From: Ginglymostoma cirratum
Taxonomy: Eukaryota
DNA length: 64,000 bases
NCBI GenBank assembly: GCA_024137785.1
Contig: JAHRHZ010000018.1
Location: 15,103,471 to 15,167,470 of the forward strand
Direction of reading: 5' to 3'
The stretch's first letter is position 1; the number at the start of each line of letters is the position of its first letter. The notes under the pieces are model-generated. The model made no database searches, was not told where the DNA came from, and saw nothing but the letters and a program-made list of their open reading frames with translations. Shown piece after piece: positions 870 to 59,368 of the stretch. The position numbers and the translations under genes were made by a program.

Positions 870-1045
870 CATGTGGAGGTGCTGGTGTTGGACTGGGATG
901 GACAAGGTCAGGAGTCAGATGACACCAGCTTATAGTCAAAAGGTTTATTTGAAATCACAAGCTTTGAAGTGACTTCACCTGACAAAGGGGCAATGCTCCA
1001 AAAGCTTGTGATTTCAAATAAACCTGGTGTTGTCTGACTTCTGAC
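870..1045. mobile_element. Penelope-like terminal hairpin insertion (family B) with decayed hammerhead motif
   Basis: Inverted arms ~908-966 / 1001-1047 plus ~37-nt unpaired tail; 12-bp TSD CTCATTATGTAT (858-869, 1046-1057); TCAC-CTGACAA-AGGGGC AAT GCTCC-AAAAGCTT-GTGA at 975-1011. Confidence 0.75.
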
Positions 1046-1706
1046 CTCATTATGTATGAATACCAGAATTACTTATATAGCTACTGATTAATATTCCAAT
1101 AAGTCCAATGTGCCCTTACAGAAATCAGCAGACATCAGTTTCAGGTAATAGTTGACTGCACCCATATGACTATTGATACACCCCACAATGAGCTCCCTAC
1201 CTTCATGAACATAAAAGGCTTCTGCTGTTGACTGATTACCACTGACGTAGTATACAGATACAAAATCCACACTTGTCCAGAGAGCACATAGATCCAGAGC
1301 CTTGGAACCATTGGATCATCACTGACCACATATTAAACTGGTCAAATAATGTGTTTGCTGCCTTGATATGTCAGAAGACTTTGCAGTAATAGGCAGATTT
1401 ATCAGAATTAAGCTTTTTGACTTTGCAAGTAACTAATTGTACAGGCTTGCTGTAGAATCCAGTGAATATTACATTACAAGTTGTCAGCACACTACCTTAA
1501 TGCACTTGAGGGTTCAGCAACAACTCCAGTTACCTCCCCAAACTAACTAACATTCAACTCCTGTCCATGTGAACCTTTGATATTTCAATCTGACACTCTC
1601 TCCCCCCTCAAACAAACATTGCCTGATTTCCCCATTTTTCCACACAAATAGGAAATACAGGATATTTTAATGATCTTTCAATATTTTCAATAGCTGCCTG
1701 AAAGAA

Positions 1707-2048
1707 TGATTGAATCCCTACAGTGTGGAAACAGGCCATTTGGCCCAGCAAGTCCAATCTGCCCCTACAAAAGCGCATCCCACCCAGACCTATCCCTCTA
1801 CCCTTACATTTTCACATAGCTAATCCACCTAATTTACACACCCTTGGGCACTACGGGCAATTTAGCATGGCTAATCCACCTAACCCGCACATCTTTGGAC
1901 TGTGGTAGGAAACTGGAGCACCCGGCAGAAACCCACACAGACATGGGGAAATTGTGCAAAGTCCACACAGACAGTCAACCGAGGGTGGAATCAAACCCAA
2001 GTACATGGCACTGTGAAGCAGCAGTGCTAAGCGCTGAGCCACCATACC
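1707..2048 (-). mobile_element. tRNA-derived HE1-like SINE
   Basis: Minus strand shows A-box TGGCTCAGCG and B-box GGTTTGATTCC, ending in a CR1-type tail (CCTGTTTCCACACTGTAGGGATTC). Confidence 0.85.
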
Positions 2049-2125
2049 GGTTGATGACCATTTTAGATAACATCCTTGTAGATGTCTTTGAAGTTAATAA
2101 ATTGAATAAAAGGAAAAGGAAATAC

Positions 2126-2300
2126 CTATGATCGCCCCCAAGAATGACACAGAGCCGGCCATCTGCTTTTACTTTGTTTACAGCTTGAAATAATTTTGCG
2201 TTTGCTTTCCCCACGGTCCTTGGCATTTTGACAGTTCCGAATGGTTCATCTTTCGGCTCATCTTCAAATGTCAAATTACCATAGTCCTTCAGGTCACAAC
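2126..2300 (-). CDS. ARG1: arginase (ARG1-type) coding exon 3
   Basis: AG/GT-bounded 175-bp exon: (G)CDLKDYGNLTFEDEPKDEPFGTVKMPRTVGKANAKLFQAVNKVKADGRLCVILGGDH(S); GGDH Mn-ligand motif; lacks the extra residue of ARG2 in this exon. Confidence 0.93.
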
Positions 2301-3020
2301 CTTGAAATGTAAAAATGGAAGGAAATTGTGTGTGGTGGGCAAGATAAATGCAAACCTACTCAATCAAGTACAATTTTAGGAATCAGTAAATAATCTATAA
2401 AAGCCCTTAGAGTTCTCAGTAAAGTGCATCTATAGGTGTTGTGAACAAATTTTAGAAACCGGTAAAGTCACAAGTTAAATGTTCTGTGCTGGACTGACTA
2501 GTTGGAATGTGAATACTGACTTCAAAATCCTGTGCCACAGGTGGGAAAAATAACAGACAACCTTCCAAATATCTGGTCCTAACACGGTATTTCCAGCTCA
2601 TGGGACACTGTCCGGTGATGATTTAAATTTACTTAACTCTGATAGCTTTGTAATTAAAGTATTCTCGTTTATGTCATCTGGTCCCAAATATGAAGTATGG
2701 CCATGTGAATTGTGTGTTTTATGTGCTTTATGAAAATGATATGATACAGTATTTAATAAATTTCAGTCGTAACATCTAACAACAGGACACCTTATATTAT
2801 AGTCTTTATAATAGCCAGGCAAAATAACTTGGCCTTTTCTGGACCTTTACAATTTACCACCTGCTCAAAGCTCAAATGTTCAGTTTTATCACTGGAGTTA
2901 GCCAAAAATTTACACTCAATCCCAATTAATAGCCTCATTTCAAGCAAATTTAAAAGTGAATTCACCCAAGCCCCCTTCAACAGCACCTTCCGAACCCATT
3001 ACCACCACCATCCTGGCATA

Positions 3021-4700: not shown

Positions 4701-4701
4701 C

Positions 4702-7476
4702 CAGAGATCGTAGGAACTTCCGAAGCTAGAGTCAGAGATAACACAATGTGTTGCTGGATGAACACAGCAGGCTAGGCAGCATCAGAGGAGCAGGAAAGTT
4801 GACGTTTCGGGTCTGGACCCTTCTTCGGTAATGGGGAAGGGGGCTCTGAAATAAAGAGAACGGGGTAGGCGATGATAGAAGGTGGACAGAGGAGTAGATA
4901 GGTGGAGAGCAGACGGACAGGTCAAGGAGGCGGGGATGAAGCCAGTAAAGGTGAGTGTAGGTAGGGGGTTGAGATGGGGGTTGGTCAGGGACCAGGAAGG
5001 GCGGGTAGGTGGGAGGGAAGTAGGACAGGTTGAGGAGGAGGGAATGAAGCTAGTAGGTAGGAAGTGGGACTTGGGGGGGGTTGGTCAGTGAGGTGGGAGG
5101 AGCTGATAGGTGGGAGAAAAGACGGACAGGTCAAGGAGGTGGGGATGAGATGGGCTGGTCTTGGGATGCGGTAGGGGGAGGGGAGATTTTGAAGCTTGTG
5201 AAGTCCACATTGAGACCATTGGGCTGCAGCGGTCCCAAGCAAAATATGAAGTGCTGTTCCTCCAGCCTTTGGGTGGCATCGTTGTGGCACTGGATGAGGC
5301 CCAGGATGGACATGTTGTCCAAGGAGTCGGAGGGGGAGTTGAAGTGGTTCGCGACTGGGAGGTGTTGTCATTTGTCATGAACCGAGCGTAGGTGTTCCAC
5401 AATGTGGTCTCCAAGCCTCTGTTTGGTTTCCCTGATGTAGCAGAGGCCACATTGGGAAAGAAGGATACAATATACCACATTAGCAGAGATAACAAGATGT
5501 GGAGCTGGATGAACACAGCAGGACAAGCAGCATCATAGGAGCAGGAAAGCTTGACGTTTCAGGCCTAGACCCTTCATTTTCTGATGAGGGGTTTCAGCCC
5601 GAAACATCAAGCTTTCCTGCTGCTATGATGCTGCTTGGCCTGCTCTGTTCATCCAGCTCCACACCTTGTTATCTCAGATTCTCCAGCATCTGCAGTACCT
5701 ATTATCTCTGATACCACATTAGCAGATGTGCAGGTGAATATCTGTTTAATGTGGAAGGTATTCTTGGGGCCTGGGATGGGGGTGAGAGGGGGAAGTGTAG
5801 GGGCAGGTGTAGCACTTCCTGCGGTTGCAGGGAAAAGTGCCGGGAGTGGTGGGGCTAGTGGGGAGTGTGGAGCGGACGAGCGAGTCAAGGAGAGAGCGAT
5901 CTCTCCAGAAGGCAGATAAGGGTGGGGAGGGAAACATATCCTTGGTAGTGGGGTCGGATTGCAGATGGCGGAAGTGTCGGAGAATGATGTGTTGAATCCA
6001 GAGGTTGATGGGGTTGTACATGAGGACCAGGGGAATTCTGTCTTTGCTGTTATTGTGGGGAGGGGGTGTGAGGGCTGAGGTGCAGGGAAAGCGAGAGATG
6101 TGGTCGAGGGCGTTTTCAACCACTGTGGAGGAGAAATTGCTGTCCTTGAAAAACGAGGACATCTGGGCTGTCTGGGAGTGGAATGCCTCATCTTGGGAGC
6201 AGATGCGGCAGAGGCAAAGGAATTGGGAATAGGGGATGGCATTCTTGCAGGAAGGCGGGTGAGAGGAGGTGTATTCTAGGTAGCTGTGGAAGTCGATGGG
6301 CTTGAAGTAGGTATCAGTTTCCAGGTTGTTACCAGAGATGGAGACAGAGAGGTCTAGGAAGGAGAGAGAGGTATCGGAGATGGTCCAGGTGAACTTCAGG
6401 TTGGGGTGGAAGATGTTAGTAAAGTGGATGAACTGTTCGAACTCCTCGTGGGAGCCCAAGGCAGTGTCGATACAGTCATCGATACAACGAGGAAAAGGTG
6501 GGGGATGGGGCCAGTGTAGCTGCGGAAGAGGGATTGTTCCACATATCCTACAAAGAGGCAGGCATAGCTTGGGCCCATGTGGGTACCCATGGCCACCCCC
6601 TTTGTCTGTGGGAAGTGGGAGGAGTTGAAGGAGAAGTTGTTATGGGTAAAGACGAGTTTGGTTAAGTGGATAAGGGTGTCGCTGGAGGGGCGCTGGTCGG
6701 GCCTGTGGGAAAGGAAGAAGCAGAGGGCTTTTAGACCATCTGCATGGGGAATGCAAGTATATAGGGACTGGACATCCGTGGTGAAGATGAGGTGTTGAGG
6801 ACCAGGGAATCGGAAATTTTGGAGGAGGTGGAGGGCTTAGGTGGTGTCACGGACATGGGTGGGGAGTTCCTGGACCAGCGGGGAGAAAATGGAGTTGAGA
6901 TAAGTGGAGGTAAGATCAGTGGGACAGGAGCAGGCAGAGACAATGGGTCGACCAGGGCAGTCAGGTTTATGGATTTTGGGAAGGAAATAGAAACGGGCGG
7001 TGCGGGGTTGGGGAACAATGAGGTTGGAGGCTGTGGGTAGACGGTCACATGAGGTTATGATGGTCTGGGAGATGATGTTTTGGTGGTCAGAGGTGGGGTC
7101 ATGATCAAGGGGGTGGTAGGAGGAAGTGTCAGAGAGTTGGCGCCTGGCATCGGCGATGTAGAAGTCAGTGCGCCATATCACAACTGCGCCTCCTTTGTCC
7201 ACGGGTTTTATAGCGAGGTTAGGGTTGGAGCAGAGGGCTGCATGTTCTGTGGGGGAGAGGTTGGAGTGGGTGAGAGGAGTGGAGAGGTTGAGGCAATTGA
7301 TATTACGATGGCAGTTGGAGATGAAGAGGTCGAGGAGGGTAGGAGGCTTTGGGGTGGTGTCCAGGAGGAAAGGGTGTGTTGGAGGTGGGAATAGGTGTCA
7401 GTAGAGGGGTGGTTAGGTTCACGTTTAAAGAAGTAAGCGTGGAGGCAGCGCAACAACTGTTCAATGTCCAGGCGTG
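4702..7476 (-). mobile_element. 5'-truncated Penelope-like element, Neptune type (RT + Cys linker + GIY-YIG), frameshifted
   Basis: DKGGAVVIW, FYFLPKIHKPDCPGRPIVS, AMGTHMGPSYACLF, RCIDD, SFLDLSV, HPPSCKNAIPYSQF, GTFPCNRRKCYTC linker, NVVYCI...CYI-ETK, HFNSP; terminal repeat with hammerhead-like motif at 4801-4828. Confidence 0.92.
5487..5710. mobile_element. Penelope-like palindromic mini-insertion (family A) nested in the GIY-YIG region
   Basis: ~90-bp inverted arms meeting at ~5578, ~35-nt tail, 15-bp TSD ATACCACATTAGCAG (5472-5486, 5711-5725). Confidence 0.9.
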
Positions 7477-7799
7477 AGAGTATTCATTAATGTTCGAGTG
7501 GAGGGGGATAATGGGATACTCAGCAGGTCTGACAACGTTTGTTGGAGAGGAGTTAACATTAGGACAAAGATCCTTTATCAAAATGTGACATGAAATTATG
7601 TCATACCAATGTTGTGTTATCAGTATGACTAATGGTTGCCAACCAATCAACATACTCCACTAAAACCCAAGCAAAATAATTTGAAGGATGGAAATCTGAA
7701 CGAAAAACAGAAAATGTTGGAAATGATCAGCCAGTCAGCAGCATCTGTAGCAAGAAGAATAGAATTAACACTTCAGATCAGTGCCTTTTCATCAAAGGA

Positions 7800-8283: not shown

Positions 8284-8620
8284 CAACCAGACATCCTAAT
8301 CTGACCTAGTCCCACTTGTCAGCATTTGGCCCATATCCCTCTAAACCTTACTATTCATATACCCATCCAGATGCCTTTTAAATGCTAGAATTGTACCCAC
8401 CTCCACCACTTCCTCTTGCAATTCATTCCACACATGTACCACCCTCTGTGTAAAAAAAGTTCTCCGTGGGTCTTTCTAAAATATTTCTGTTCTCACCTTA
8501 AACCAATGCCCTCTAGTTTTGGACTCCCCTGCCGTTGGAAAAAGATCTTGGCTATTCACCCAACCCATGGCCGTCATGATTTTTAAACCTCTTTAAGGTC
8601 ATCCCTCAGTCTCTGATCTT
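8284..8620 (-). mobile_element. CR1 (HER1-like) LINE 3' end
   Basis: Near-identical to reverse complement of 17180-17500 (ESKTRGH...WN.LPEEVV...GYGPNA). Confidence 0.85.
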
Positions 8621-9179
8621 CCCAATTTCTGTGGTGCATGTTCTGCCAAAACCAAAAAGAAGAACATTTGCTGAAGGGAAATGTTATTACTGCTGGAAAG
8701 AATCATAGCAAAGGAAAAAGTGCCAGAAGCAATCAAGGTAGATGTTAGCAATTAGGAGGGCTACAACATAGTTAATTTGTAACTCCTAGCATTCCCTAGT
8801 CAAGAAAGCCCAAGGCAAACATATCACAGAAGAATTTTACTCCAAAGATAAAGTTGACAAACCAGAAACAATCAAAAGGGAGTGGAAAAAGTGCAATCAG
8901 TTTCATAAAATGTAGAATGGCATCTGCTTAGTATGATATATGAAGCAGAGTGTAAGGCAGATACTACTATTAAATTTAGTATTCAGTGGTCTACTAGACC
9001 TTATTTGTTACTGGTAAATGTGTGAGTACTTTATTTCTAGTTTATTTAAACTCAATATGGTATTAAAAGCTGAAACCAAAGTAATAATACTGACATGCAA
9101 AGTATCAGATGAGTAACTACTGCAAATGTGGGAGGGTTTGAAGGAATTAATTGGGAAAGTGAACCAAAACATAACATTT

Positions 9180-9411
9180 GATTTGATTTATTATAGTCAC
9201 ATGTACCTAAGTACAGTGAAAGGCTTTGTTTTGCAAGCTGTACAGGCAAATCATAGCAAACAAGGACATACAGATCATAGGTGCTTATACAGAGTGAGGC
9301 ATACAGGTTACAGCTGCACAGGAGATGTGCAAAGCAAGATCAACAGTATTTGAAGTTAGAGAGATCATTCATCAGTCTGATAATGGCAGGGAAGACGCTG
9401 TTCTTGAACCT
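9180..9411 (-). mobile_element. L2-like LINE 3' tail
   Basis: TTTATT...GTCACATGTACC...GTACAGTGAAA tail pattern and GTTCTTGAACCTG; a related plus-strand tail occurs near 12390-12445. Confidence 0.45.
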
Positions 9412-9587
9412 GAGATAACAAGGTGTAGAGCTGGATGAACACAGCGGGCCAAGCAGCATCAGAGGAGCAGGAAGGCTGATGTTTCAGGCCTAGACCCTTT
9501 TCTGAAGAAGGGTCTAGGCCTGAAATGTCAGCCTTCCTGCCTTCCTTATCTCAGATTCTCCAGCATCTGCAGTTCCTACTATCTCTG
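9412..9587. mobile_element. Penelope-like palindromic mini-insertion (family A), right arm partly deleted
   Basis: Arms meet at ~9500; CTGAAGAAGGGTCTAGGCCTGAAATGTC at 9502-9529; same tail as the 5487 copy; no TSD found. Confidence 0.85.
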
Positions 9588-10159
9588 TAAGGAAGCATCG
9601 GTTAGAAACATTATGGGATTGGCTCCCCCTAATGGCACTGTGTGGTGTAGTACTGCCACACAGGCAAAATTATGCTATGTCTGGCCTGTATTCGTCTTAC
9701 TTGGGGAGCAATTGGGTAGGGACGGAAATATTAATCATGGTATGTGAGTTATCTGTGTCCAAGTTCTGCTGTCAGAGAGAAAGCAGACAGAGATATTGAG
9801 TGAAGACAGGATCAGATATTGACAGTGATGACCTTGTCCAGATTTATGACTCTGTCCTACTCCTATTGTCTTCCTGTGAATTATACACATTAAGTCATGG
9901 TGCACCAGAAAGATGATGTCATCTGAAACTATTTGCAATTAGAAAACCAGGTACTGGTAATTTGATACAATTAATATGATGAAACTGTTGGCGAAAGAAA
10001 CAGAAGAAAAAATTCAGAGAATGGAAGGAGGCTGTACAATCTGTCAAGTACATGCTGTTGCAATGCAAGAGAACTCAGCTGGTCCCAGACCTTTGCTCTT
10101 TCCCTGTAACTCTACAATTTTCTTCACTTCAGTTGCTTATCCAGTTCGATTTTTATTTT

Positions 10160-11559: not shown

Positions 11560-11700
11560 AAAAATAGGAAGTTATGCAGAAACTTGGCAGGTTTGGCAGT
11601 ATCTATGGAGAGAGAAACATAGTTTACATTTCGAGTCTGATGTGACTCTTCTTCAGATTTATCTCAGATTTCTAGTTTCAAAGTACTTTGCTTTTATTTA
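11560..11700 (-). mobile_element. Penelope-like terminal fragment with hammerhead motif
   Basis: Minus strand CTGAAGA-A-GAGTC ACATCA GACTC-GAAATGTA (11656->11625); perfect 5-bp stem II. Confidence 0.65.
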
Positions 11701-12559: not shown

Positions 12560-13275
12560 ATCCAGCCATTGGACAGGTTTTAAGGGCCAGCAAAGAATGA
12601 CTAAATTATAATAAGGAGGCAGTATGTAGAGTATGAGAGAAAGTCAGAAGTCACACGACCCCAGGTTATAATCCAACAGGTTTATTTGAAATCACAAGCT
12701 TTTGAAGCGCTAATCCTTCATCAGGAGAGAAAAAGCTGACTAGTAATAGAAATTTTAAAAATGAGTTTCTACAAGATTTTAAATAGGAAAATAGTAACTA
12801 AATGTTTGTACTCTAGATAATGGAAAACAAGGAAATAGTGGAGACATTAAACAAATATTTTGAATTTGTCTACACTTTAGAAGTCCTATAAAAGTTTCCA
12901 CCAACATTTGAAAATCAAGAGGTAAAAGGGAGGGAGGAACTTAAAATAATACCATCATCAGGGAAAGGGTACTGAGAAAATGGTCGAATCTAAAGTGTGG
13001 CAAATCCCCAGAGGCATTGGCTATCATTTTCCAAAAGTCCATAGATCCTGGAAGCATCCCAATGGATTGGAAATTAGCTAACATAATACCATTTTGGAAC
13101 AAAAAAATGGTGAGAAAGTATACAATAAAGAATGCTATTCAAAAAAGTGTCCAGGTTAGAGAGACAGGACAGGTAGAAATAACTGTTGATAAAGCATACT
13201 GTGTTCTAGACTTCATTAATAGGGACATAGAGAACAAGAGAAAGTAAGTTATGTTGAACCTACAAAAAACACTAA
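12560..13275 (+). mobile_element. old CR1 ORF2 fragments, containing a PLE half-arm at 12643-12724
   Basis: MAIIFQKSIDPGSIPMDWKLANIIP and KAYCVLDFINRDIE; PLE family-B arm flanked by 8-bp TSD GAGAGAAA (12635-12642, 12725-12732). Confidence 0.7.
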
Positions 13276-14326: not shown

Positions 14327-14415
14327 ACAAGGTGTAGAGCTGGATGAACACAGCAGGCCAAGCAGCATCAGAGGAGCAGGAAGGCTGACGTTTCGGGCCT
14401 AGACCCTTCTTCAGA
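14327..14415 (-). mobile_element. PLE family A half-arm with intact hammerhead core
   Basis: Minus strand CTGAAGA-A-GGGT CTAG GCCC-GAAACGTC (14414->14387). Confidence 0.85.
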
Positions 14416-18125: not shown

Positions 18126-18384
18126 AAATTGGTCTCCAAATCTAATTTCTTCTTTCTTGCCCTCTCCACTTGTATATAACGGTGGTGATACCTTTCCTCA
18201 TGATTTCCTCTGGATTTGCCAGAAGCCCACTGTTGTGCTCCTCCAGCAGGTGGTGGCCAATCAAGTCCTACAGTGCTGAAAAACAACTCAGTCAGTAAGC
18301 TGTCACTTCTGGGAGTTTTATTTTTACAGTCTACATGCACCACATCAATCTCATTATCCTTTTCAACTATCTTTGTTACTTCAT

Positions 18385-19370: not shown

Positions 19371-19509
19371 CCTCAGATCCAGTCCTGAAGAAGGGCAATA
19401 CGTGAAACATTGATTGCTGCTTTCCTCCAGATGCTGCCTGGCCTGCTGTGTTCTTCCAACCTCCTGTTTGTGTACCTTGGATTCCAGCATCTGCAGGTTT
19501 TTTGTCTCA
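19371..19509 (+). mobile_element. PLE terminal mini-insertion (family C) with decayed hammerhead
   Basis: CAGTC-CTGAAGA-AGGGCAATACGT-GAAACATT-GATTG; 9-bp TSD AAACTCAGT (19362-19370, 19510-19518). Confidence 0.7.
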
Positions 19510-26269: not shown

Positions 26270-27053
26270 TGTATCAGAGATAAAAGGTACTGCAGATGCT
26301 GGAGAATCCGAGATAACAAGGCGTGGGGCTGGATGAACACAGCAGGCCAAGCAGCATCATAGGAGCAGGAAAACTTGACGTTTCGGGCCTAGACCCTTCA
26401 TCAGAAATGGGGGAGGGGAAGAGGGTTCTGAAATAAATAGGGAGAGAGGGGGAGGCGGATAGAGGAGTGGATAAGTGGAGAGGAGGCAGACAAGTCGAAG
26501 AGGCGGGGATGGAGCCAGTAAAGGTGAGTGTAGGTGGGGGGGTAGGGAGGAGATAGGTCAGTCCAGGGAGGACGGACAGGTCAAGGGGGCGGGATGATGT
26601 TAGTAGATAGGAGATGGGGGTGGGGCTTGAGGTGGGAGGAGGGGATAGGTGAGAGGAAAAACAGGTTAGGGAGGTGGAGATGAGCTGGGCTGGTTTTGGG
26701 ATGCGGTTGGGGGAGGGGAGATTTTGAAGCTTGTGAAATCCACATTGATACCATTGGGCTGCAGGGTTCCCAAGCTGAATATGATTTGCTGTTCCTGCAG
26801 CCTTCGGGTGGCATCACTGTGGCATTGCAGGAGGCCCAGGATGGACATGTCGTCTGAGGAATGGGAGGGGGAGTTGAAATGCTTCGCGACTGGGAGGTGC
26901 AGTTGTTTGTTACGAACTGAGCGCAGGTGTTCCCGCCTCTTCGACTTGTCTGCCTCCTCTCCACTATCCTCTCCTCTATCCATCCTCTATCCGCCTCCCC
27001 CTCTCTCCCTATTTATTTCAGAACCCTCTTCCCCTCCCCCATTTCTGATGAAG
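26270..27053 (-). mobile_element. 5'-truncated Neptune-type PLE (family A) with inverted 5' segment
   Basis: GIY-YIG C-terminus EHLRSVRNKQLHLPVAKHFNSPSH...LGTLQPNGINVDF; 26931-27053 is an inverted copy of ~26395-26505; 14-bp TSD GGATATGGAAAAAT (26256-26269, 27054-27067). Confidence 0.92.
26373..26408 (-). ncRNA. minimal type-I hammerhead ribozyme motif (best preserved copy)
   Basis: ATTT-CTGATGA-A-GGGT CTAG GCCC-GAAAC-GTC|AAGT: complete core, stem II, palindromic ACGT stem III, GUC cleavage triplet, weak 4-bp stem I. Confidence 0.75.
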
Positions 27054-35525: not shown

Positions 35526-36552
35526 ACTGAGCAGGAGGAATGTCACCTTCTAGATAGAGCACTGTAGCATCAGCACAACAACCAGACAGAATTTAATTGA
35601 TGCCCAGTTTCATTAGATGTGATCTGGGTGCATTGATCATTCATTGACTGTAAACTTGTTGCTGGAAAGGCAAGCAGTCCCTCTACTTTTTTTGTTTGTT
35701 TCTCCTTTGCTGTTTTTGATGGATCAAAGTGTACATTTGCAACTGTTTGAAGCTTTCCAGTGTGTGATAATCCCAATGAGAAGATATTAGACTATGCTGA
35801 CTATCAGGAATCTGAACCATAAGGAAGTACTCCCTTAGACAGACTTCTAAGTTAGGATGATGCTAAGGAAGGGTATTCTTTGTAGCTCAGTTCTTAAATA
35901 CATTTACATATGTGCACCTGTATTTACAGCGAACTATCAGCCGTTCCAACTATGTGTCCTGAGAAATGTTTCTTTTTAGTTCTCCTCCCAATACATGCAT
36001 CGTGAAGGACAGCTCCTGGTTGGTAGCTCTTGACCTAGTGCACAACTGATGTTTAAAAATGGTGCTAGTGCTGGAAACCTGGGAGGTTCTAGTAGTGGTG
36101 AGTACTTCCATCACTGCTGAGCTCATGATAGTACAAGCAGGGTGTAAGTAGATGTATGGTGCATAGGTAATGAGGCAAGATTATGAGAAAATTGGGTAGG
36201 TCCACAGAGAGCAACCGACCGCGAAATTCCCTAAACTTGACACTTAGACGATTTCTGGTAAAATTTAGCCTTCTGTCTTTGCTCTTGCCTAAAGAATTTT
36301 ACACCACTAATTCTGATGAAAATTCAATAACCTGAAATATAAACTCTGTTTCTCTCCATACATATGTTGCTTGGCCTTTTCAGCACTTACTTGAATTTGA
36401 TACTTATATGTTCTCATCTTAAGTTAAAAGAATGATTGAAAAGCAAAAAGAATCAGTTTTCAATCTACTCATTTTGCGAAGATTGTAAACAAGCTTTTAG
36501 TTTTTTTTAAGATAACCATTTAAAAATTTAAAAAGAAACAACAGATTAAGAT

Positions 36553-37149
36553 GAGATAACAAGCATGGGGCTGGATGAACACAGCAGGTCAAGCAGCATC
36601 ATAGGAGCAGGAAAACTTGACGTTTCNNNNNNNNNNNNNNNNNNNNNNNNNNNNNNNNNNNNNNNNNNNNNNNNNNNNNNNNNNNNNNNNNNNNNNNNNN
36701 NNNNNNNNNNNNNNNNNNNNNNNNNNNNNNNNNNNNNNNNNNNNNNNNNNNNNNNNNNNNNNNNNNNNNNNNNNNNNNNNNNNNNNNNNNNNNNNNNNNN
36801 NNNNNNNNNNNNNNNNNNNNNNNNNNNNNNNNNNNNNNNNNNNNNNNNNNNNNNNNNNNNNNNNNNNNNNNNNNNNNNNNNNNNNNNNNNNNNNNNNNNN
36901 NNNNNNNNNNNNNNNNNNNNNNNNNNNNNNNNNNNNNNNNNNNNNNNNNNNNNNNNNNNNNNNNNNNNNNNNNNNNNNNNNNNNNNNNNNNNNNNNNNNN
37001 NNNNNNNNNNNNNNNNNNNNNNNNNNGGCCTAAACCCTTCATCAGAAATGATGAAGGGTTTAGGCCCGAAACGTCAAGTTTTCCTGCTCCTATGATGCTG
37101 TTTGACCTGCTGTGTTCATCCAGCCCCATGCTTGTTATCTCGGATTCTC
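36553..37149. mobile_element. young PLE family A palindromic mini-insertion spanning an assembly gap
   Basis: Near-perfect inverted arms with apex GAAA at 37044-37048; 14-bp TSD CAACAGATTAAGAT (36539-36552, 37150-37163). Confidence 0.88.
36627..37026. other. assembly gap (400 N)
   Basis: Run of N. Confidence 1.
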
Positions 37150-38024
37150 CAACAGATTAAGATCGCGGTTTTTATTACATCACCTAAAAATTGCAGTTAT
37201 CTTTATATAGTGTTAGCATAATTGTAGCCTTCAATTACACAAACGACTTCAATTAATGATGAATTAATCCCAGAGGTGACTGTATACAAAGACAATGGAG
37301 AGATGTACTTTACAAAGCATCAAAAATTGTGTCTATTTGTCTCATGTGCAAATATATATTTTCACCTAGCAGTTAGAAAGCATTTATTGCTCACTCCTCA
37401 TTTTGGTTTTTGTTTTGGCTGTTTTTACAAATGCTATTGATGGGTCTTCATGTTAGCTGTAAATCAAAACTGTAACTTGTGGCTACATAGTTTGACCAAT
37501 GGTTCTCATGGAACACAAAGATACATTCCCTAATGCATAGTAGTTGTTCATCTTTTTGTTGTAGTACTCTTTATCCTTTCACCTTTGAGCTCTGTTTGCC
37601 AACAAGCCAAGAGCTATGATAATACAGAATAAAGATTAACCCCATTTCTACTGCTCCTGCTGATAAACCACGTCCAAACTGCATAATTTAATTAATCTCT
37701 TGAGGTGGACCAATAAACACATAAATAAGCTATTCCCTGTTGTGCCCAATTGCTTGATCTGTAGGAGCCTTTATTGGTTCCCCATTGTCTATTTTAAGTA
37801 ATAGCTTTGACATCATATCTTTCTGCTTCAATTTTCACCTTCCCACTTCTCCAGTTCAGTAGTAATCCATGTTGGGACATGTTTATTCAAGTATTATCAA
37901 CCTTTCAGCACCTCATCCTACCAAGTGACTATCCTTTGTAATTCAATGTCATTGGGCTCTTCCAGCAAGCTGATGTAACATTGGGACTCCATGCTAACTT
38001 TGTGTAATCTCCAATTATGCGCAA

Positions 38025-38241: not shown

Positions 38242-39334
38242 TAAATGTGATTCAATAATAGCAGTCTGAAGTTGGAGAGTTCTCTGGCTCAAAGGTACTG
38301 AAGTCAATGACAGCATCCCAGTGTATGACTGAGACTGAGATCATGGTATTATCTAGTATTTAATACCTTCGGCATCTGAAGAAATGTGGCTTTTGTCTCA
38401 TTAACTTGAACTGATCACTATTACAATTCACAGCTACTTGCGTCCAGCTGACACTCTGATAAATATACAGAACGAAGTTTAGTCTATTGGGAAGGATAAG
38501 GAGTTACAAAGCAAGGGGAAGTTGTATTTTCTCTGTTCAAAACCAGGGAACAATCTTATTTCCTTCAGCCCTACAAAAGAAATAAAGCAACTTATCTAGA
38601 GGGCTCAGTATCCCAATCCACTTGAACTGGTAGGAAAATCATTTTGATTCCAATATTCACACCAAATTAATTAGCACCTATTAGGTATTGACAGATATTT
38701 TGTAAATTGTTCATGATTATTAGTTAAAGTCGGATATGATATTAACCAGTGAGGTTTCAAAATAACAAATAACCCGAAACATATTAGCACAAGCCTGACC
38801 AACATGCTTAAACTCTCCCTCCCTACATGAATGATATTCTGCTCAAATTTTGGATTTTTACAAGACAAAATCCACAGATATTGGGAAAATAAACAATGTT
38901 AAATTATTGTTTACGATATTATAGGAGCTCCCTGTACTGCCCTACTGAGGGTTTACATGGAACTGAAACCTTATGCTTTGTTTTAAACAGGTTGAAAACA
39001 GAGGTGCCAAAATAAACACCAGACTTTTAATTTGTGTGATCTTTTCTGAGGTAGGTTTGCAAGCCAATTCTTTATTTAATATGCAAGTTATTTGACACTA
39101 CCAGAGAAACAGTGATATGTAGAGAGACTGATGAGGCAGCTTAGTAAATAAGCAATAAGATCCTGATCAATGTGTCATTAATCTCAGTTAACTAAAGGTA
39201 TTGGATCCTGTGACTTTCAAAATAAAAGAAGTAAAGGTAATGCATTAAATATGGCTTGGAGCGGATCTCGATAAAGGTGACAACAGTGATACTAGAACTG
39301 GCCTCAACTTCCCTGGGCTGGAGACAAGACTGTC

Positions 39335-39444
39335 CCAAAATGTCAGCTTTCCTGCTCCTCTGATGCTGCTTGGCCTGCTGTGTTCATCCAGCTCTACACC
39401 TTGTTATCTCAGATTCTCCAGCATCTGCAGTTCCTACTATCTCT
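39335..39444 (+). mobile_element. PLE family A terminal fragment
   Basis: Starts in the 3' half of the hammerhead motif; possible 8-bp TSD ACAAGACT (39324-39331, 39447-39454). Confidence 0.8.
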
Positions 39445-42400
39445 ATACAAGACTAACGGGTCTGTTTCCATGCTGTATAATTCTGTGACTCTATGACTCT
39501 AAATACTATGGCCCATTGCCCCAGACTCTCTAAGCAGAACATTTCCAAATGAGAATGGCTCAGCACCCAGATTGATATCTCCATAGCCCCCTGTCTGGCA
39601 TAGTAATAGTCCCCAGACTCATTGCATTTGACCAGCAGACTGAACATGGCCCATCCAAGGACAGGGATCCATAGACACTGGTAGAACCAAGCACCTGATT
39701 GACTGTGTCCAATTACCTGTGGCGTAATTGAGCAAGCCCATTGACTAACTGTGCCAGTACCCCTCTGTGGTTCTCCCTTCACCCAACTAAGAGTGCTCCC
39801 TTTGATTTTCACACATTACCATTTACTTGAAGCATATGCATTGTGTCTACTGCTTAAGACATTGGCACATGCTGCAGGTATGAAGTTGATGTAGTACAGT
39901 GGTACATGGCAACATGTCCACCCCTTCGACTGTTGAGTGTTCAGTGCTTGCCATTGTGACAAACTGCCTGACTCTTCCTCTGCACTAAAAAATAATGCAA
40001 GTCATATATATTGACAAATTGTAACTGTTCTTTGAAAAACCAGCATGTTAAAGAGCAATGTCACCCACACAGAAGTTGGCAATGTGTACATCAGTGCTTT
40101 TTGAGTGACTTCTAAGAAAGCAACGTGTCCCTCACACAAGCTGGCAGCCACTAAGTAATCACAATATGAGTCAGCACTAAAAAAGTAAGCTAAGAGGTAT
40201 TAAATATATTCTGCACAGATGCATGAAAGCATCTTTGTGAGCACACAAAGTAAATTGACCAAAGCATTCAAATTGTAGGTGGCCCTGAGCAGCAAATGAA
40301 AGTATTGGAGGTCTGGAGTGGTCTGAGAGTTGATTCATGACAATGTGATGAAGCTGGTGGTTTGCTGATGCTGCCTTGCAGAGACAAAAGGCTAAGGAGG
40401 ATATTGTCCATGAAATATGCACAGTGTTTGTCCAACACATCCTCTGATGCTGCCTGACCTGCTGTATTCCTCCAGGTCCACACTATGTTGTCTCTGATTC
40501 CAGCATCTGCATAGTTCTTGCTTTCTCTGAAGAAATAGTTGGAGATGGCTGGGTCAAGCATTCAGTGATCTGCAGTGCCAGGTACTTACTCTGACTTTCA
40601 TGTCTGGAATTTGCACCATTTTGTTTACTGGGCAAGGAGAGGAGAACTGAGTCATGTATAAATAAGGTGAGTTGTGATAATAATGAGTTACAAATACAGG
40701 TAAAAATAAGGTAGTCACTACTCAACGGTGAAATTCTAAAGTCACTATTTATGGTTTAAGGAAAACTTGCAAACATTTTCTCTATGTTGAGATTTGGACT
40801 TTTTTTCATTCACTCTATGTTTTCCCAGTTTTCTCACCATTCCTCATGCCACACCAGGGAGGAGAAAATCATTCATCATTAGTTGTGTCAGAAACATCCC
40901 TTCTTTTTGTTTTCTGAGACCTCTTCAATGCAGCAACATTATTTTACAGGTTATCTGCCCATAACAGCTATCAAATATGAACACATCTATAATCTATGAG
41001 ATTTAATCATCACTTTGAGACTAAATATCCTGGAGATAAATCTCATCATTTTGCCCTAACTTAGATGAAAGTAGAAAAGATTTTACACTTGCACAGTTTG
41101 TTAGAAGGACAGATGAATGAAAACTGGAACATAGAAAGGTTAACTCCCCTCTTGAATGCTACAAACCACCATTCTTTCTCCCAGATCTTTCCCACTTTCC
41201 AAGAAACAAATATCCTTTGCCTTTGGATCAATTCTATTATTTTTCCTGCTTCCCATGCCATTTCTGCTCTACTAATTTATGCATTTTAAAAATTTAATTA
41301 AACATAAGTAGCATAGTATTTTATATTCATTTATATTACTTTAAATTTTCTTGCCATCTATACTTTCCTAAAATCTCCTGAATCTCTTTGTAGTTTGCGC
41401 TGTAACAGTGCCTTGTATGTTGACCAGTTTTTAATATACTTGATTTCAGTTCAAACACAAGACAATCTGTCGTGTGCACTACTGGTTAAAAGCTGTAGCA
41501 GCTGCATTTTGGAACTTGACTCATTAGCAAGTACAAAATGACAGGCCTAGATATGGTATCTGAAGAGTAGGGTCACCTTCTTTCTGAAACAACATTTCCA
41601 AGATCACCTGCTCAGCAGTACAGCATACTCAAGTTTCACTGCATCATAACATTCTGTGCATGATTAGACTGGCACTGAGTCTAAGACATTCTCAAGAGCA
41701 TTTTATCATCCTTACAAAAACTGTTCATACTTGCATCTATAAATTTTTGCTGCGATTCCTACTTTCACCAATGATTCTTCACTTTAAAAAATTGTCCATA
41801 GATTTTTCCAATGGCTTATGGTTAAATGCATGATGTGGTACAGAACCAAACTTTGGAAGCGCCAGGTTTCCATCTCTGGTTTGTTTTGTTAATTGATGTA
41901 AATTAAGTTTAGTTGTGATAGCAAAGCAGTTAGCCTAAGCATCCCTTAGCCAGTAAGGGCCAAATAAAAGGATTTTTGCTTTTGATCAATATTGTTCCCT
42001 ACAGAAAGAGAATAATTGATTGTCAGATGAGAAAAGATTAGGGGTTATATCCCATGATTTCAAATAGCCTACCGATATTCACTGTCTGGACTCACATGTA
42101 GATTGGTTCACTTGGGTATGGTGATGGGCATCCATCATTGTTTTTGGAACTATACCCCAGCCAAAATGTACTTTCTTGCTATTTAAGAAATTAAGGCTAT
42201 ATGTGTGGCCTAGCCAAGGTTTTTTGTTTAATTGAACGTGTTATTAGACTACAGGTCTACAAATAAACCTGTGATTGATGTTAAATAACTAAGAGAAACT
42301 AAGAGCTGGTTAGGAAATCCAGGCATATATTTTTTTAGTCAGAGTTTTACTTTAACTCTCATTTCACAATTCCAGACACACTTATTACTTGTTCCCCATA

Positions 42401-45554: not shown

Positions 45555-47030
45555 TAAGACCATAAGACAAGATGTACGAGCAGAATTAGGCCATTCAATT
45601 CATGAGACTGCTCCGCCATTTAATGAGGTCACAGTCGGTCTGATAATCTTCAATTCCATTTTCCTGCCTTTCCTTCTAACCCTTGATTTCCTTGCTGATT
45701 AAAATTATGTTTAGCTCAGGCATGATTATAATTAATGACTCAGCTTCAGCAGCCCTCTGCACTAAAGAATTCCACAGATTCATTGCCCTATGAGAGAGGA
45801 AATTCCTTCTCATCTTTGTCTCAAATGTGCAACCACTTATTCTGAGATTATGTCCACTAATCCCAGGCTGTCCCACAAGAGGAAACAATCTTTCTGCATT
45901 TATCCTGTCAAGCCCCTTAAGAATCTTACTTGTTTTAATAAGGTGCCTCTCATTCTTCTACTCTCCAATGAATGCAGGCTGAATCTGTGCAACATCTCGT
46001 GAAGGCAGTCCCTCAATACCCCACACACCAGGCCTTGTTAGCACATGGTCTGCCATGACACACTACCTATTGTTGGCCTCTAACAGTCCACATTAACAGC
46101 TATTCACCCTCCCACCCATATTGTTATCCATTCCTTTGTCTGTCCGAATGTTCTTATCTCTCTTTGGGCTCTATCCCCACCTATCATTTACTCCTTAGCC
46201 CCTACCCCCACCCTATCTTCTGCATATAAACTGACATTTTCCTATCTACCATCAGTTCTGAGGAAGGGTCACTGGACCCAAAATGTTAACTCTGATTTCT
46301 CTTCACAGATGCTGCTGGACATGCTGAGCTTTTCCAGTAATCTCTATGTCTTGGGCTTCAAAACCTGACATCAACCTGGCAAACCTGGTCTGACTGCCTC
46401 CAATGTGAGTATGTCTTTCCTTGGATAAGTCACCCAAAACTGTTCACAGTCTTCCAGCTGTGGTCTGACTAGTGCCTTGTATAGTTGTAGCAAAATCTCC
46501 CTTCTTTTATACACCACTCCCTTTGAAATAAGGACAACATTCAACTTCCCTTCCCCCATTACCCACTGAACTTGGATGCTAGCTTTTTATGAGACATGGA
46601 TGAGGACTCCCAAATGGCTTTCTGCAGTCTTTCTCCATTTAAATAATATTCAGCTCCTCCATTCTTCCTTCCAAATTGCATAACCTCACATTTTCCCACT
46701 TTACATTCCATCTGCCAAGTTCACAGCCATTCACTTAACCTGTCTAAATCTCTCTGCAGACTCTTTGTGTCATCCTTATCATTTGCCATCCCACTGATTT
46801 TTGTTTAATCCACAAAAAAATGGCTATAGTATATTCATTTTCCTCATCCAGGCTATAAATATATATTGTAATTAATTGTGGCCTCAGCACTGATCTCTGT
46901 AGCACTCCATTAGTTACAGGTTGCTATCCTGAAAATGCTCCTCTTATCCCAATAATCTGTCTTCTATTAGTTAGCCAGTTCTCTATCCACAACATATACC
47001 TCCAACACTATGGGCTTTATTCTATTGAGT
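45555..47030 (-). mobile_element. CR1 RT/3' region with nested PLE 3' end (~46020-46350, +)
   Basis: LLQLYKALVRPQLEDCEQFW; MFPLVG...LWNSL; nested AGTT-CTGAGGA-AGGGTC ACTG GACCC-AAAATGTT-AACT. Confidence 0.85.
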
Positions 47031-50164: not shown

Positions 50165-51225
50165 CAAAATAAAACAAAGAACTGCAGAAGCTGGAGATCT
50201 GAAACAAAAACAGAAATTTTTGGAGAAACTCAGCAGGTCTGGCAAATCTGTGGGAAGAGGCCAGAAATGTCAGCTTTCCTGCTCCTATGATGCAGCTTGG
50301 CCTGCTGTGTTCATCCAGCTTTACACCTTGTTATCTCAGATTCTCCAGCATCTGCAGTTCCTACTATCTCATAAGCAGAATTAACATTTTGAATCTGATG
50401 ACTCTTCATCAGAACTTTTAGCAGCTAGGAAAACGTGGTGTTTATGCTGAAGCTGAACTTTATTGGGTGGGGGTGAGCGTGTTGGAGTGATGGACAGATT
50501 AGCAGCTAGGTGAAGACAGAGCCCAGAAAGACAGAGATATAAGAGGGGTGGATAAACAAGGTGATTTTGGATAGCAGGCCAGGACAGAAGAAAAGCTGAA
50601 TAAGTGATATTAAAAGCTAAGAGCATGAGAAAATGAGTGAGCTGAACTGAATGCAATCCATATAATGAGATGATGGGCCGAGGAGTATGTGAGAATGGAT
50701 AACTGTGCTAAATGCAACAGGACCAAGTGTGGGGTGGGTAAAAACATGGAAGGATGGAGTCAGGGTCTGAAGTCAGTGAATTTGATGTGAGTCCTAGAGG
50801 CTACAGTGTCCCCAGGCTGAAAATGAGAAGCTGTTCTTTGGGCTTGTGCTGAGGCTCATTGGAAGATTGCAGCAGGGCTGGAACAGAAAAATTGGTGTGT
50901 TGAAGTGGCAGGCAACTAAAAGCTTGGAGTCATTATGGTGGACAGAAAGTAAGTGTTCTGCAAAGCAGGCACCCAATTTGCATTCATCTCCCCAGGGCAG
51001 AAGAGACCACATTGTGAACAGCGAATACAATAAAGTAGATTGAATGAAGTACAGGTGAATCGCTGCTTCACCTGAAAGGTACGTCTGGGACGTTGGATAG
51101 TGAGGTGGGGCGTAAGTAAATGGGCAGGTGTTACAACTTCTGCAATTGCCTGGGAAGGTGCAATGGGAACATTAGGAGATATTAGGAATGGAGGAGGAGT
51201 GCACCAGAGTGTCCCAGAGCGACAC
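50165..51225 (-). mobile_element. older Neptune-type PLE 3' end (family D) with a family A tail nested at ~50261-50370
   Basis: TFQVKQRFTCTSFNLLYCIRCSQCGL; FAEHLLSV...VACHFN; AGTT-CTGATGA-AGAGTC ATCA GATTC-AAAATGTT-AATT. Confidence 0.8.
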
Positions 51226-55479: not shown

Positions 55480-56205
55480 AAGCCACTTTGGTAGGAAAAA
55501 TAGAAAGGCAGCCTTGTTCTCTTGAAGTAAATGGGTTCGTATTCAAGGAAATTTTAATGTTGTTGTACATGAATTCCAGGAAGCTGAAATAGAGGTATAG
55601 TAAGGGATTGGGAGGGCAAATGATTTGTTAGCCCTCATTTCAAAGTAGTTGGAGTGTTAAGAAAGTCATACTGCATTATTTTAAGGTTTACTTAGACCCG
55701 ACTTAGAGCAATGCGTAGAGTTTTGGCTTCCTTCCCTAAAGCGGTATGTATTTGCCTTGGAGATGGTGCAGTGAAGGTTCAGTAAATTGATTCCCCAGAT
55801 GAATACTGTAGTTTGAGGAAGAATTGGGTGTAATCAGCCTATATTCTGTAGAATTTAAAAGAATGAGAGATGATCAAATTGAAATTTGTGAAAATCTTAG
55901 AACATTTGACCAAATAGATGCTGATAAGCTATTCCTTGAGACCGGGAAATCAAGAATTAGGGTTCTTGGTGTCAGAGTCAAGAATCAGCCATTTTGGGTC
56001 TGACATGAGGATAAATTTCTTCACTCAGTGTGTTGTGAATTTTCGATACCATATGAAATCAATACATGTTTGGACTCCAATTGACTCAACAGAGATAGGA
56101 ATATAGTGGGAAATGGATTGGAAGTCATTAGCAAACAGTCAACATCTTATTGAATGGGAGAGCAAAGTCAAGGGGATATATTGCCTTAATGCGCTCCTAT
56201 TTCCT
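55480..56205 (+). mobile_element. old CR1 3' region
   Basis: LRPDLEQCVEFWLP, RMRDDQIE, MRINFFTQCVVN. Confidence 0.7.
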
Positions 56206-59181
56206 CCCTTCGTAGAAAAATGGGAAGGCACCTCTTCTCAATTCAATGTAATATTTCTCAGCCATTTTCAATGAAGAAAGAGAAGAGAGCAAGTAGGTGG
56301 GTTTAAGGTTTGTTTGCCAGCTGGCATCACTGAATGACTGAAAACAAGTCCATGCTGATCTCAGTTACTGGGTGATAGTGGAAAAATATTGTCTTCGGTT
56401 CATGCTATTTAATATTTCACTTCAACTGTATGACTAATAGTGTCCTCCATAGTTTGCTTTCTCCCCACACAGCTAATATGGAAACCAACTGACATGAGGG
56501 TGATAGGTTTGAGCTCAGTTCTGAGCTGGGTTAGTCCCTCTAGCCTGCATGACAATCAGCTGCCACTTTTAGCTTCAGTTATGTGAATTCTGGAATAGGA
56601 GGAAGGGTTGGGACAAGGGGGCTACTAGGTGGGTGGGGTTGCAAAATCAATTGGGATTTATCTTCTTATTGAATAAACCCTGTTGGAAAGTGCAAGTGTG
56701 CAGGCTTGGGTTTGAGGACTAGATCTGGCATCCATGAAAAATATTTTGATGATGCAGGACTGTTAGAACCACATGTCAACGTTGCTGTGAAATTAACAGG
56801 GAATGATAATTTGGCTTTATACTGCACTATGGAGATGGGTAGAGGGGAGACTTATCTATAGGGGAAGCCTCCGAAAACATGAACTATTGCCCTGTTTCAA
56901 TTCCATTTGTATGCCTTGAATGCAACAGCTGTCTTGTTGCTCCTCATCTATGAAAATATTGGATAACGGTAGATCATAATGGCTAGAAGTGTACTACAAT
57001 CTAGCTCAGTCCAGGCCGCGCCCAGTTTCTATACGCACGCATTCTGCAGCTGATGTGAAGAATCATGACTAACTCTTCCCCTCTCTAATTCAAGTTCACT
57101 GAGGCCGGTTGTAAAGATCCAATTGACCGGACAGACTGAGCGAGTTCAAGTAACCGAAGTTACTTCTGGTGTGTATGGTAAAGCAATGTACCGGACATTG
57201 TTTTTACTGTAAGAGAAGTTCGCATTATTAAATTCAAAACTGTTTTAAGGATTACCATCAGTCAATGGAGTTTGGCTCCAGTGGTAATAATGGAACTGGG
57301 AACAAAGCAGTCAGATTTAACTGCGCATGCCTCAAAAATGTACCTGAATTATTAAATTCCCAAGATACGCATTCCTTGTATAATATTACCAACAATTATA
57401 ACTGTGTAATTCGATAACTTTATGTAAATACTCTATATACTGCTGTTACTCAATAAGTCATTAATAGTGACTTTGGAGCGCGAGTACTTAACTATACAGA
57501 ACACACTCACTAATGGCGCCTTCCTTAGCTTTATAAAAAGAGTGGTCAATTATCCAGTCATATTTTCTTTTAAAATATATTTGAACTAATATTTGTTGGC
57601 GGAGTAATACACACTTGATGCGAGGCCATTTCCCGTGATTTAGATCAGTAAATGAAATGTGTGTTTAGCCTTCTAACCCACTGGAGCTTGTTGTTAATGT
57701 TATAACTACCGTAGACTGTATGGACCCCATCTAATAAGGAAGTGTCGGCCTTATAAATCTCTATTAAAATTAGTCGTAAAGGTAATCTTACCGCAGCCCA
57801 AATAAATACTTTGACTCGATTCTATTTATACCCACGCACTCTTCTTCAGAACTTGTTCCAACTCCTAAAACATTAATCGAATTTCCTTCAAAATGTTACT
57901 TCTTAAAGACTTTCAGAAAACAGACTGTTTAAAAAAAAAAAAATCAAGGCTTCAACTTTTAAAACTTATTATACGATTTGAAGAATAATGCTTAAACTAA
58001 TCGGAATCCAACTGTAAAGTCAGCTCCACAAAGCAGTGTCTTGGTGTCAATTACCCGGCTAGAATGGAAACTTATGAGGAAATCTGAATACACACCTATT
58101 TATATCTCTATAATGGACAAACAGATATAGAGTTAGAAAATAACATAGATAAATAGACACGTGCATAAACAAACAAAGATACACAACGATTGCAAAGCAA
58201 AACACGTACAAATGGATGTTTGCAAAGAAAGAAACTTGCAGATCAATGAATGTTAAAACACTATGGCCTTAAATATGAAGCTGACTGAAAAGGAAAAATT
58301 ACCAGAAACTTTATTTTTCATTCAAATCGTGTGACCTTTTTAAGGGAAACTTTTTCTGACTATAGGAAGCATTTAAATATGTAATTAAAATATTAGATAG
58401 TTATGGCATAATTGCAGTGTTAATGCAGTCATGTCTATGTAACAATTTGTGATTGTGTTCGTTGTCTGCCTCTGTGTTGCTGTAAAGTGCTAGTTGTGTA
58501 GTAACATCACTCCATGTCGTGGCTCTGTCATTGCTTAAGGTCCATAGTAAGAAATGTTTTGAATGACCTATTTTGGGAGGAGTGCTGTGATTGTGCGTCA
58601 TCAGAAAATTCAACACTCTACCAACTCCTAACATTTATAAATGTGATTTGAAGTAGCATTTCAACTTCTCAAAGAAAACAAACCGAACTGAATTAATTGC
58701 TCTATTTGTTCTATTAATATAATGATGTTCTATACAATATCCAAATTTAAGGTGAATCGAAATCAACAGAGCGGTTACAACGTCTGTGTATGACATGCTG
58801 GAGAAGAAGTGAAATGTCTCTTTGAAATGAGACTGGGTCAGTTGCACTCCATGTTAAGTACAATTACTGTTAGCAAAGTTAAATACCAGTACAATGAATA
58901 AACGATATTAAGTTATTTGCAGTCTAATTTCTCAGTGAAACGTTTAACGATCTTTAACATTAGAGGAAAGAGAAACATTTATAGTATCTCGCCTTGGTGC
59001 AGTGATAAATAACTACCTTTTCATTTAATAAGCAGATTAGTATTAGAATCAAGTATTTCCTTAAATTTGGTACATACATTTATAACGTCCTGGCTTTCAA
59101 GGCATGGCCAATTATGTGTGTGCGCTTATGATCCCTCTCCTATGAACGTATATGTGTGTGTGGCTCCTCTCCAATGCATAT

Positions 59182-59368
59182 AGTACTGCCGAAAAAAGGG
59201 ACACAGTCGAAGCTTTTCCTCCTGCAGTCACCAGACCAATTCACAAGAAATTCTAAAGTAAAGGGAAACCCGTCATTTGTCTCTTGCCGTTACTTTGGCA
59301 TTCTTGTGAATTATCCTGACGAGGGCAAGATGAAAAGCTTTTGCAAAACGTGTCTTTTCAGCAATACT
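59182..59368. repeat. old inverted-repeat element with hammerhead-like motif in each arm
   Basis: Arms ~59182-59250 / 59301-59368 (AATTCACAAGAA vs TTCTTGTGAATT); CTGACGA-GGGCAAGAT-GAAAAGCTT at 59316-59340. Confidence 0.6.

Follow-up and report, generated by a model that had tools for sequence, protein, structure and literature searches.

Minimal hammerhead motifs in Penelope-like terminal repeats of the shark Ginglymostoma cirratum: abundant, mostly decayed insertions probably copied from uncut element RNA

A stretch of 64,000 nucleotides from the Ginglymostoma cirratum genome (assembly GCA_024137785.1, contig JAHRHZ010000018.1, positions 15,103,471 to 15,167,470 of the forward strand; hereafter the window) carries numerous short motifs that resemble the hammerhead, a small self-cleaving ribozyme. 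We conclude that these are probably minimal type-I hammerheads within the terminal repeats of Penelope-like retroelements (PLEs), scattered as short, mostly decayed insertions that were likely copied from uncut element RNA. The motif itself, its place in the pseudo-long terminal repeats (pLTRs) of metazoan PLEs, its massive dispersal and its weak activity are already described in the available text of Cervera and De la Pena (2014; PMC4209133), where it is termed the minimal hammerhead ribozyme (min-HHR). Nothing was found in the literature that names sharks in connection with Penelope hammerheads, although subscription papers and supplements lay outside the coverage and a shark count may therefore exist in print. 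The role of the hammerhead in endonuclease-bearing (EN+) PLEs is still termed unclear in the accessible part of a more recent study (bioRxiv 2021.04.23.441226).

At all 14 sites named in the initial annotation a CTGANGA-like box, a remnant of stem II and a remnant of GAAA-(CG/GC)-T-H are present and the stem arms that it quoted can be read, with the correction that the site given as 37044(-) lies at 37045(-), where the motif is readable only in part. Core boxes and palindrome are intact at three of the 14, namely 26404(-), 14414(-) and 59316(+). The second of these has lost the 5' arm of stem I and the stems of the third are broken, so that 26404(-), with stems I and II of 4 bp each, is the only window site at which core, stem II and stem I are all intact. 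A strict descriptor gave four box matches in the window, two of them with a stem II of at least 4 bp and one also with a stem I of at least 3 bp; in 200 dinucleotide shuffles box matches averaged 0.21 (at most 3), those with stem II 0.005 (at most 1) and those with both stems 0. Family profiles run with nhmmer recovered 24 end-fragments in the window, all with E no higher than 3e-5, and the core is spanned by 16 of them. These profiles were built from a genome sample, those of families E and F being partly or wholly seeded from the window copy. The sample was drawn from six contigs as eight blocks, two of which adjoin the window, and comprised 160 stretches of 10 kb; it was not random, and 1.228 of its 1.6 Mb were readable. 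The list of sites in the initial annotation holds as far as it goes, but it had overlooked 7689-7794(-), 36313(+), 59181-59269(-) and several tail-only pieces.

Viewed within the window alone, the motifs might be taken for chance matches to a short pattern. An Rfam search of the window returned no hammerhead family over the gathering threshold, nor any at E<=10, and single-strand folding of ten window copies gave results roughly equal to those of shuffles (z -1.9 to +0.45). For 26404 the best predicted fold has core and cut region paired to each other (-9.3 vs -4.0 kcal/mol for stems I and II), in a model that ignores core contacts. Pair covariation among 13 raw window copies in a MAFFT alignment was likewise not above shuffles (215 and 370 of 500). 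At the scale of the genome the picture is quite different. A pattern search was run on the 4.36-Gb assembly using core-box patterns without a stem requirement, with reversed patterns as control. Core boxes with ACGT were matched 140,906 times (1,134 for the reversed control) and those with AGCT 8,398 times (155 reversed), giving a total of ~149,000 intact core-box matches against ~1,300 in the control, or one per 29 kb. The assembly also has 31,147 copies of one exact 29-base family A motif (control 0). These counts, together with the pairing of stems at the level of families, have already refuted chance, which now retains next to no probability.

The initial annotation had supposed about five families, and five, here called A, B, C, E and F, do occur in the window. 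A sixth, D, is absent from the window and was found in the genome sample (L045, L052, L078, L109, L123, L126 and L148). Family A combines the 5' arm ATTT with stem II GGGT/GCCC and a right arm of AAGT, AAGC, AACT, AGCT or AGCC; family C has stem I AGTT/AACT and stem II GGGTC/GACCC, family B stem I TCAC/GTGA, and family D stem I TGCA/TGCA and a stem II of 6 bp, together with a distant endonuclease (33-40% identity) on the upstream side. For family E a guessed exact pattern matched one locus, and a DNA search then recovered the family. The palindromic helix III is ACGT in A, C, D and F, AGCT in B and AAGCTT in E, and the CUGANGA and GAAA..UH boxes stand in order in all six family majorities if CpG decay is allowed. 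Across these majorities the arms of stem I are Watson-Crick paired at 23 of 24 positions, a score equalled by 1 of 720 permutations; C, B, D and E alone give 16 of 16 (1 of 24 permutations). For this test the copies were gathered on core and stem II, not on stem I, and A was represented by its best-paired subfamily. The six families include A, C and F, which are related; the downstream tail that these three share makes them look like one lineage. Stem II pairing was read off the family majorities without permutation. The covariation of stems that had been claimed is thus supported between families, and is not supported among the window copies.

The link to PLEs comes from an open reading frame (ORF) that accompanies the motif. 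A full family A element is arranged as motif, 130-nt leader, ORF (reverse transcriptase (RT), CX4CX2C linker, GIY-YIG endonuclease), 3' untranslated region (UTR) and motif again. The genomic copy L186 has DKG, the CX4CX2C linker (CNHRKCYTC) and CCHH-type residues, and its GIY-YIG domain scores 22.7 bits in Pfam against a cut-off of 22.6; these are features given for both Neptune and Nematis (bioRxiv 2021.04.23.441226). Relatives carry PF00078, PF26215 and PF01541, the best-scoring named ones coming from Stegostoma and Chiloscyllium and others from rays and Rhincodon, which agrees with an elasmobranch host. With the window RT fragment as query, 109,083 first-look candidates were obtained in the genome, of which 132 were scored, and 23 of the 25 RT loci examined have a family A motif on the same strand downstream of the ORF. 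An endonuclease match was found on the same strand within 1.2 kb upstream of 38/178 A, 20/200 C and 2/12 D copies, compared with 2/176 A and 4/199 C copies on the downstream side; a few C matches are neighbouring A copies. Three of 14 family F loci also have an upstream match, the part of the ORF seen in families C and F being C-terminal. At three loci the tail runs on into the element's own 5' region, where the likely ATG lies ~170 nt after C3; the motif would therefore fall within the 5' leader. The window itself holds ORF remnants at 4726-7514(-), 26270-27053(-) and 50190-51116(-). Judged from sequence features, the element appears to be a Neptune-type PLE, with RT and GIY-YIG upstream of the motif for A, C and F and likely so for B and E. 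This supports the proposal of the initial annotation that the window motifs belong to PLE terminal repeats and are minimal type-I hammerheads whose stem III is palindromic.

The distribution of copy ends bears on how the elements are copied. Positions are given relative to the hammerhead core. The 3' ends of family A cluster near +94 and +128, that is, with a 34-nt tail between them. The 5' ends were examined in 179 of 207 aligned A copies and 117 of 223 aligned C copies (score >=60, identity >=85%, readable flank), and 59 and 60 of these respectively (119/296 together) begin at -8..0, just before the core. A further 15 A and 3 C copies begin at -94..-9, 29 and 9 further upstream, and 4 and 4 past +50. 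Expressed per base, the rate of 5' ends in -8..0 is 0.064 for A and 0.093 for C, falling to 0.008 and 0.007 downstream and to 0.004 and 0.003 upstream, so that the rate in the cluster is 8-30x that of either side. Starts at the predicted cut (+/-1) number 4 in A and 1 in C, where 4.3 and 2.6 were expected, and there are none in 16 family B copies. As copy starts are frequent directly ahead of the motif and nearly lacking at the predicted cut, the elements were likely copied from uncut RNA.

The position of the cluster would suit a transcription start. Long copies of family A have TATTTAT at -35 in 25/42 and CCATTT in 35/42; in family C TATAAA stands at -33 in the majority (read from the majority line) and TCAGTT in 11/16. 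Under the general definitions of TATA-like and initiator-like motifs, the TATA-like motif of the long copies lies 29-31 bases ahead of an A at -4, and that A lies within the initiator-like CCATTT or TCAGTT. Family F, by eye, has motifs of both kinds at promoter spacing. Family C is enriched in a non-templated G at -5 (6/9, p ~0.01), as a capped template would be expected to leave. At L130:3733-4432(-) a single insertion consists of two joined pieces of the element 5' end, both ending at -5 and inside an 11-bp duplication, which looks like a template jump. The cluster might instead arise if the RT stalls at stem I or in the pyrimidine tract, if ends are joined at microhomology, or if the element's own DNA is nicked there. 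The 5' ends are indeed spread over nine bases, and an inverted junction with microhomology, which blurs the end, is present in 73/179 A and 41/117 C copies. Moreover, in the available text of Frangieh et al. (2024; PMC11167929) the Poseidon element of Anolis carolinensis (PAc) is described as cutting at an ATT motif that lies just downstream of the junction between ORF and pLTR, and ATTT stands at the cluster in family A. Family C, however, has AGTT and yet shows the same cluster, the promoter-like motifs stand at promoter spacing in A, C and, by eye, F, and the rate of breakpoints drops to 0.003-0.004 per base upstream of -8. An origin of the cluster other than transcription start is considered quite unlikely.

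The initial annotation had read roughly one motif per 5 kb as a very large load of potentially self-cleaving sequence. That figure is a density of relics: intact core boxes occur once per 29 kb, and one of the 14 window sites satisfies the full descriptor. In the 1.228 Mb of readable sample there are 472 fragments, of which 300 span the core (one per 4.1 kb) and 69 have intact boxes. Extrapolation suggests ~1 million relics genome-wide, ~100,000 of them with intact core and stem II. Most of the damage is at CpG positions, in line with the decay that had been proposed. All boxes are intact in 46/100 family A copies and in 8/86 of family C, and these numbers rise to 75 and 39 once CpG transitions are forgiven. 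The change G12A is no rarer than the tolerated C11.1U, the two being present in 23 and 13 of 100 A copies and in 28 and 26 of 86 C copies, and so gives no sign that inserted copies are kept active.

In one poly(A) RNA run bearing the same species label, 52,727 of 12.9 million reads fall on the family A end; the run is unstranded, and a second run gave <500 reads. Between 89% and 93% of the matching reads continue into sequence unrelated to the element, and coverage of the 5' ORF region is ~30-50x lower than that of the repeat. The hammerhead family thus appears mostly as a passenger in other transcripts. Read starts and ends are not clustered anywhere on the A end, including the predicted cut site, and no splice-type joint is present among the 15 joints given in each listing. 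As a test of RNA ends this is weak, because such libraries capture ribozyme ends poorly.

Regular cutting of the template RNA by the ribozyme, with the dispersed intact copies forming a large active load that cuts host transcripts, would accord with several of these numbers: the ~149,000 intact matches, the 29 of 63 box matches in the first 1.2 Mb of the sample that have both a stem II of at least 4 bp (42/63 have this) and a stem I of at least 3 bp, and the presence of the family in poly(A) RNA. The PAc motif, too, cleaves upon addition of its protein (PMC11167929, available text). Against this, the 5/296 copies that start within one base of the cut do not exceed the ~7 expected (95% upper bound 3.5%), and 61 of 107 classed A copies belong to subfamilies with no more than two contiguous stem I pairs. 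Fold-back pairs carry their motifs on opposite strands and so cannot form a dimer within one RNA. In vitro, the accessible sources report a single min-HHR without cleavage (PMC4209133) and eight of nine Xenopus dimers without cleavage (bioRxiv 2026.07.22.740005); the absence of an end pile-up in RNA adds a weak test. We regard such a load as improbable, and since no sign of cleavage in vivo was found a large load of working self-cleaving RNA is not demonstrated.

A number of results weigh against the account of transcription from just before the core and copying of uncut RNA. The start at -4 is itself a prediction from motifs, and read ends do not pile up there in the single unstranded poly(A) run. 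Of the A copies 72/179 begin at +1..+50, as do 41/117 of C. The cluster is not seen in family B (3/16 copies), and the non-templated G at -5 is not enriched in family A (3/7, p 0.24). Further, no ORF was found near family B in 30 sample copies or at four long loci, searched in 3-kb stretches, or near family E in nine sample copies, the matches in 16 E loci being A copies or one weak match. Families B and E could accordingly be independent non-autonomous elements, or retrozymes that spread as short units, and tandem retrozymes have been reported in a chondrichthyan (bioRxiv 2026.07.22.740005, accessible text). The B copies, however, have 300 nt or more in common upstream of the core and begin at varying points, B and E make the same head-to-head pairs as A, and the 24 window fragments include no array of tandem units. 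The B and E copies examined were all short or old and their architecture fits EN+ PLEs. An independent origin of these families is judged unlikely.

Copying from uncut RNA, which we prefer, can be set out as follows. Transcription would be directed by a TATA box within an upstream copy's 3' UTR and begin at the A four bases ahead of the core. The element RT would take its start within this RNA, close to +94 or +128, as has been shown in vitro for Anolis Poseidon, and run back to the RNA 5' end to give stubs of 100-135 bp, while longer copies would arise by read-through into a second repeat. Selection on a few master elements would keep the hammerhead fold; cutting is probably rare, by dimers or together with the element's protein, and would take off the cap, upstream of the ORF. 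Inserted copies would then decay neutrally. Tentatively, and with somewhat less than even confidence, we propose in addition that the genome holds ~1 million hammerhead-bearing Penelope ends (~100,000 with intact core and stem II) whose breakpoints record the mechanism in vivo, with transcription from the first base of stem I and capped, uncut RNA as template. As subfamilies with a crippled stem I were still amplified, the hammerhead would on this proposal be a brake on expression and not a step of transposition. Most copies are dead, but with tens of thousands of young ones it is possible to count the points at which template RNAs started and to tell if these had been cut; this record of ends agrees with one in vitro study (PMC11167929, available text).

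Within the window a young family A insertion lies at 26270..27053(-), which comprises the endonuclease C-terminus (26693-26971), the 3' UTR, the terminal repeat and a short inverted arm, whose motif at 27045(+) ends after 11 nt, with a 14-bp duplication at 26256 and 27054. It contains the fully intact minimal hammerhead 26377..26404(-) (stem I ATTT/AAGT, stem II GGGT/GCCC, palindrome ACGT, predicted cut after GUC). At 14387..14414(-) core and stem II of a family A motif are intact; the copy begins at -1, so that the 5' arm of stem I is flanking DNA. Stem II and its CTAG loop at 26385-26396 and 14395-14406 are nearly self-complementary, and two such RNAs are predicted to form a 12-bp duplex (-33.8 kcal/mol), a possible aid or rival to the helix III dimer. 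For AGC subfamilies (14385-14414(-) in the window) an inactive hairpin is predicted, in which the core's CUGA could pair with UCAG at the cut site.

A 5'-truncated, frameshifted family A element of Neptune type occupies 4726..7514(-), as delimited by tblastn and blastn against the genomic copies L186 and L232. It retains RT (6508-7477; RVT_1 at E=0.006, below the cut-off), thumb and linker (5658-6384), endonuclease (5158-5487), a pyrimidine-rich 3' UTR and the terminal repeat, within which lies a relic with U4C at 4801..4828(-). Nested in its endonuclease region is a fold-back family A mini-insertion, 5488..5710 (motif 5581-5608(+), G16.2A; 16-bp duplication at 5472 and 5711). Other fold-back A insertions are 9400..9590 (motif 9502-9529(+), C15.2U) and 36547..37153 (motif 37048-37075(+), C3A, with the partly readable 37045(-) copy; 14-bp duplication at 36539 and 37150), and an A end fragment at 39328..39445(+) begins inside stem II and lacks the core. 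Such head-to-head pairs are common and have target duplications; among 12 window insertions tried, duplications of 14-16 bp were found at three, matches of 8-9 bp at three and none at six.

Most of the 14 sites show CpG-type damage, and the catalytic G12 is mutated (G12A) at four. These are the family B relics 979..1007(+), which also has G8A, retains stem I TCAC/GTGA and forms the right arm of an inverted pair with the tail 882-969(-), and 12696..12724(-), with a damaged stem II; the family C end 46223..46351(+) (motif 46258-46287, also C15.2U), with TATAAA and TCAGTT upstream; and the family C remnant 50190..51116(-), with an endonuclease piece at 50789-51116 and the motif at 50383-50412. 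The tail of this remnant is split by a family A fragment, 50252-50372(+). A similar nesting of A in C (50190-50416 in the window) is seen at sample locus L119, and perhaps reflects targeting of related ends. Further traces of family C are an old end fragment at 7689..7794(-) (nhmmer E=1e-12), a C-type relic at 11625..11656(-) (stem II GAGTC/GACTC, C15.2U, stem I broken) and an old C-type relic at 36313..36341(+) (nhmmer E=2e-5). The family F relic 19385..19411(+) has G16.2A and a damaged stem II, the family majority being CAGTC/GACTG for stem I and GGGT/ACC(C) for stem II. An inverted pair of old family E ends at 59181..59393 includes the motif 59316-59341(+), with intact boxes, palindrome AAGCTT and broken stems (majority stem I TTGTC/GACAA).

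Among the neighbouring sequences, 2125-2310(-) is an arginase exon, with two more exons on the same strand to the left of the window; the first exons are expected to the right, so the nearest hammerhead motifs may be intronic. One long ORF at 60942-62216(+) has a forkhead domain (Pfam E=9e-40) and presumably resembles FOXG1. Other repeats lie at 8343-8696, 10751-11350, 17004-17381, 17503-18860 (RT match at 17503-17814), 32618-33383 and 47820-48233, and are probably long interspersed nuclear elements (LINEs).

Comparison with known systems, drawn from the available parts of the published accounts, places these elements close to several of them. With the min-HHRs of PMC4209133 they share type I topology, an extra base between A9 and 10.1 (A, B, C, D and F here), G10.1-C11.1, palindromic 15.2/16.2, a stem I of 4-5 bp, several consensus families with compensatory changes, and mostly single dispersed copies with close opposite-strand pairs. 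They differ in that stem II here is 4-5 bp in A, B, C and F and that stem I is weakened in several abundant A subfamilies. Core-box matches, counted without required stems, number ~149,000 compared with ~4,000 in coelacanth and ~9,000 in Xenopus (PMC4209133), ten or more times the published vertebrate counts. Non-LTR retrozymes, reported in a chondrichthyan, have a type I motif related to those of pLTRs, but form tandem arrays (bioRxiv 2026.07.22.740005), whereas the 24 window fragments are single or inverted. The Neptune clade of EN+ PLEs has the same RT followed by C-terminal GIY-YIG, DKG, a CX2-5CxxC linker and CCHH-type residues, as well as partial tandems, inverted 5'-truncated copies and a tail of 30-40 bp (34 nt here); Nematis has the same linker, and the probable assignment to Neptune was made from sequence features (bioRxiv 2021.04.23.441226). 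TATA-like and Inr-like motifs are described in the Penelope pLTRs of Adineta vaga (PMC3846280), while the promoter of D. virilis Penelope is TATA-less and internal, unlike that predicted here (PMC2377424). Also described in these accounts are a downstream copy's transcription out of the 3' UTR belonging to the copy upstream, as predicted for the present elements, and inverted pLTRs with target duplications, as found here (PMC3846280, PMC2377424); the accessible passages do not relate the 5' ends of insertions to the transcription start. Finally, PAc is a Poseidon element whose ORF begins at stem II, unlike that of family A, but it has in common two RT start points that give the tail, extension of both strands, which fits the head-to-head pairs, a cut site without RNA-seq ends and a main template that consists of unprocessed RNA (PMC11167929).

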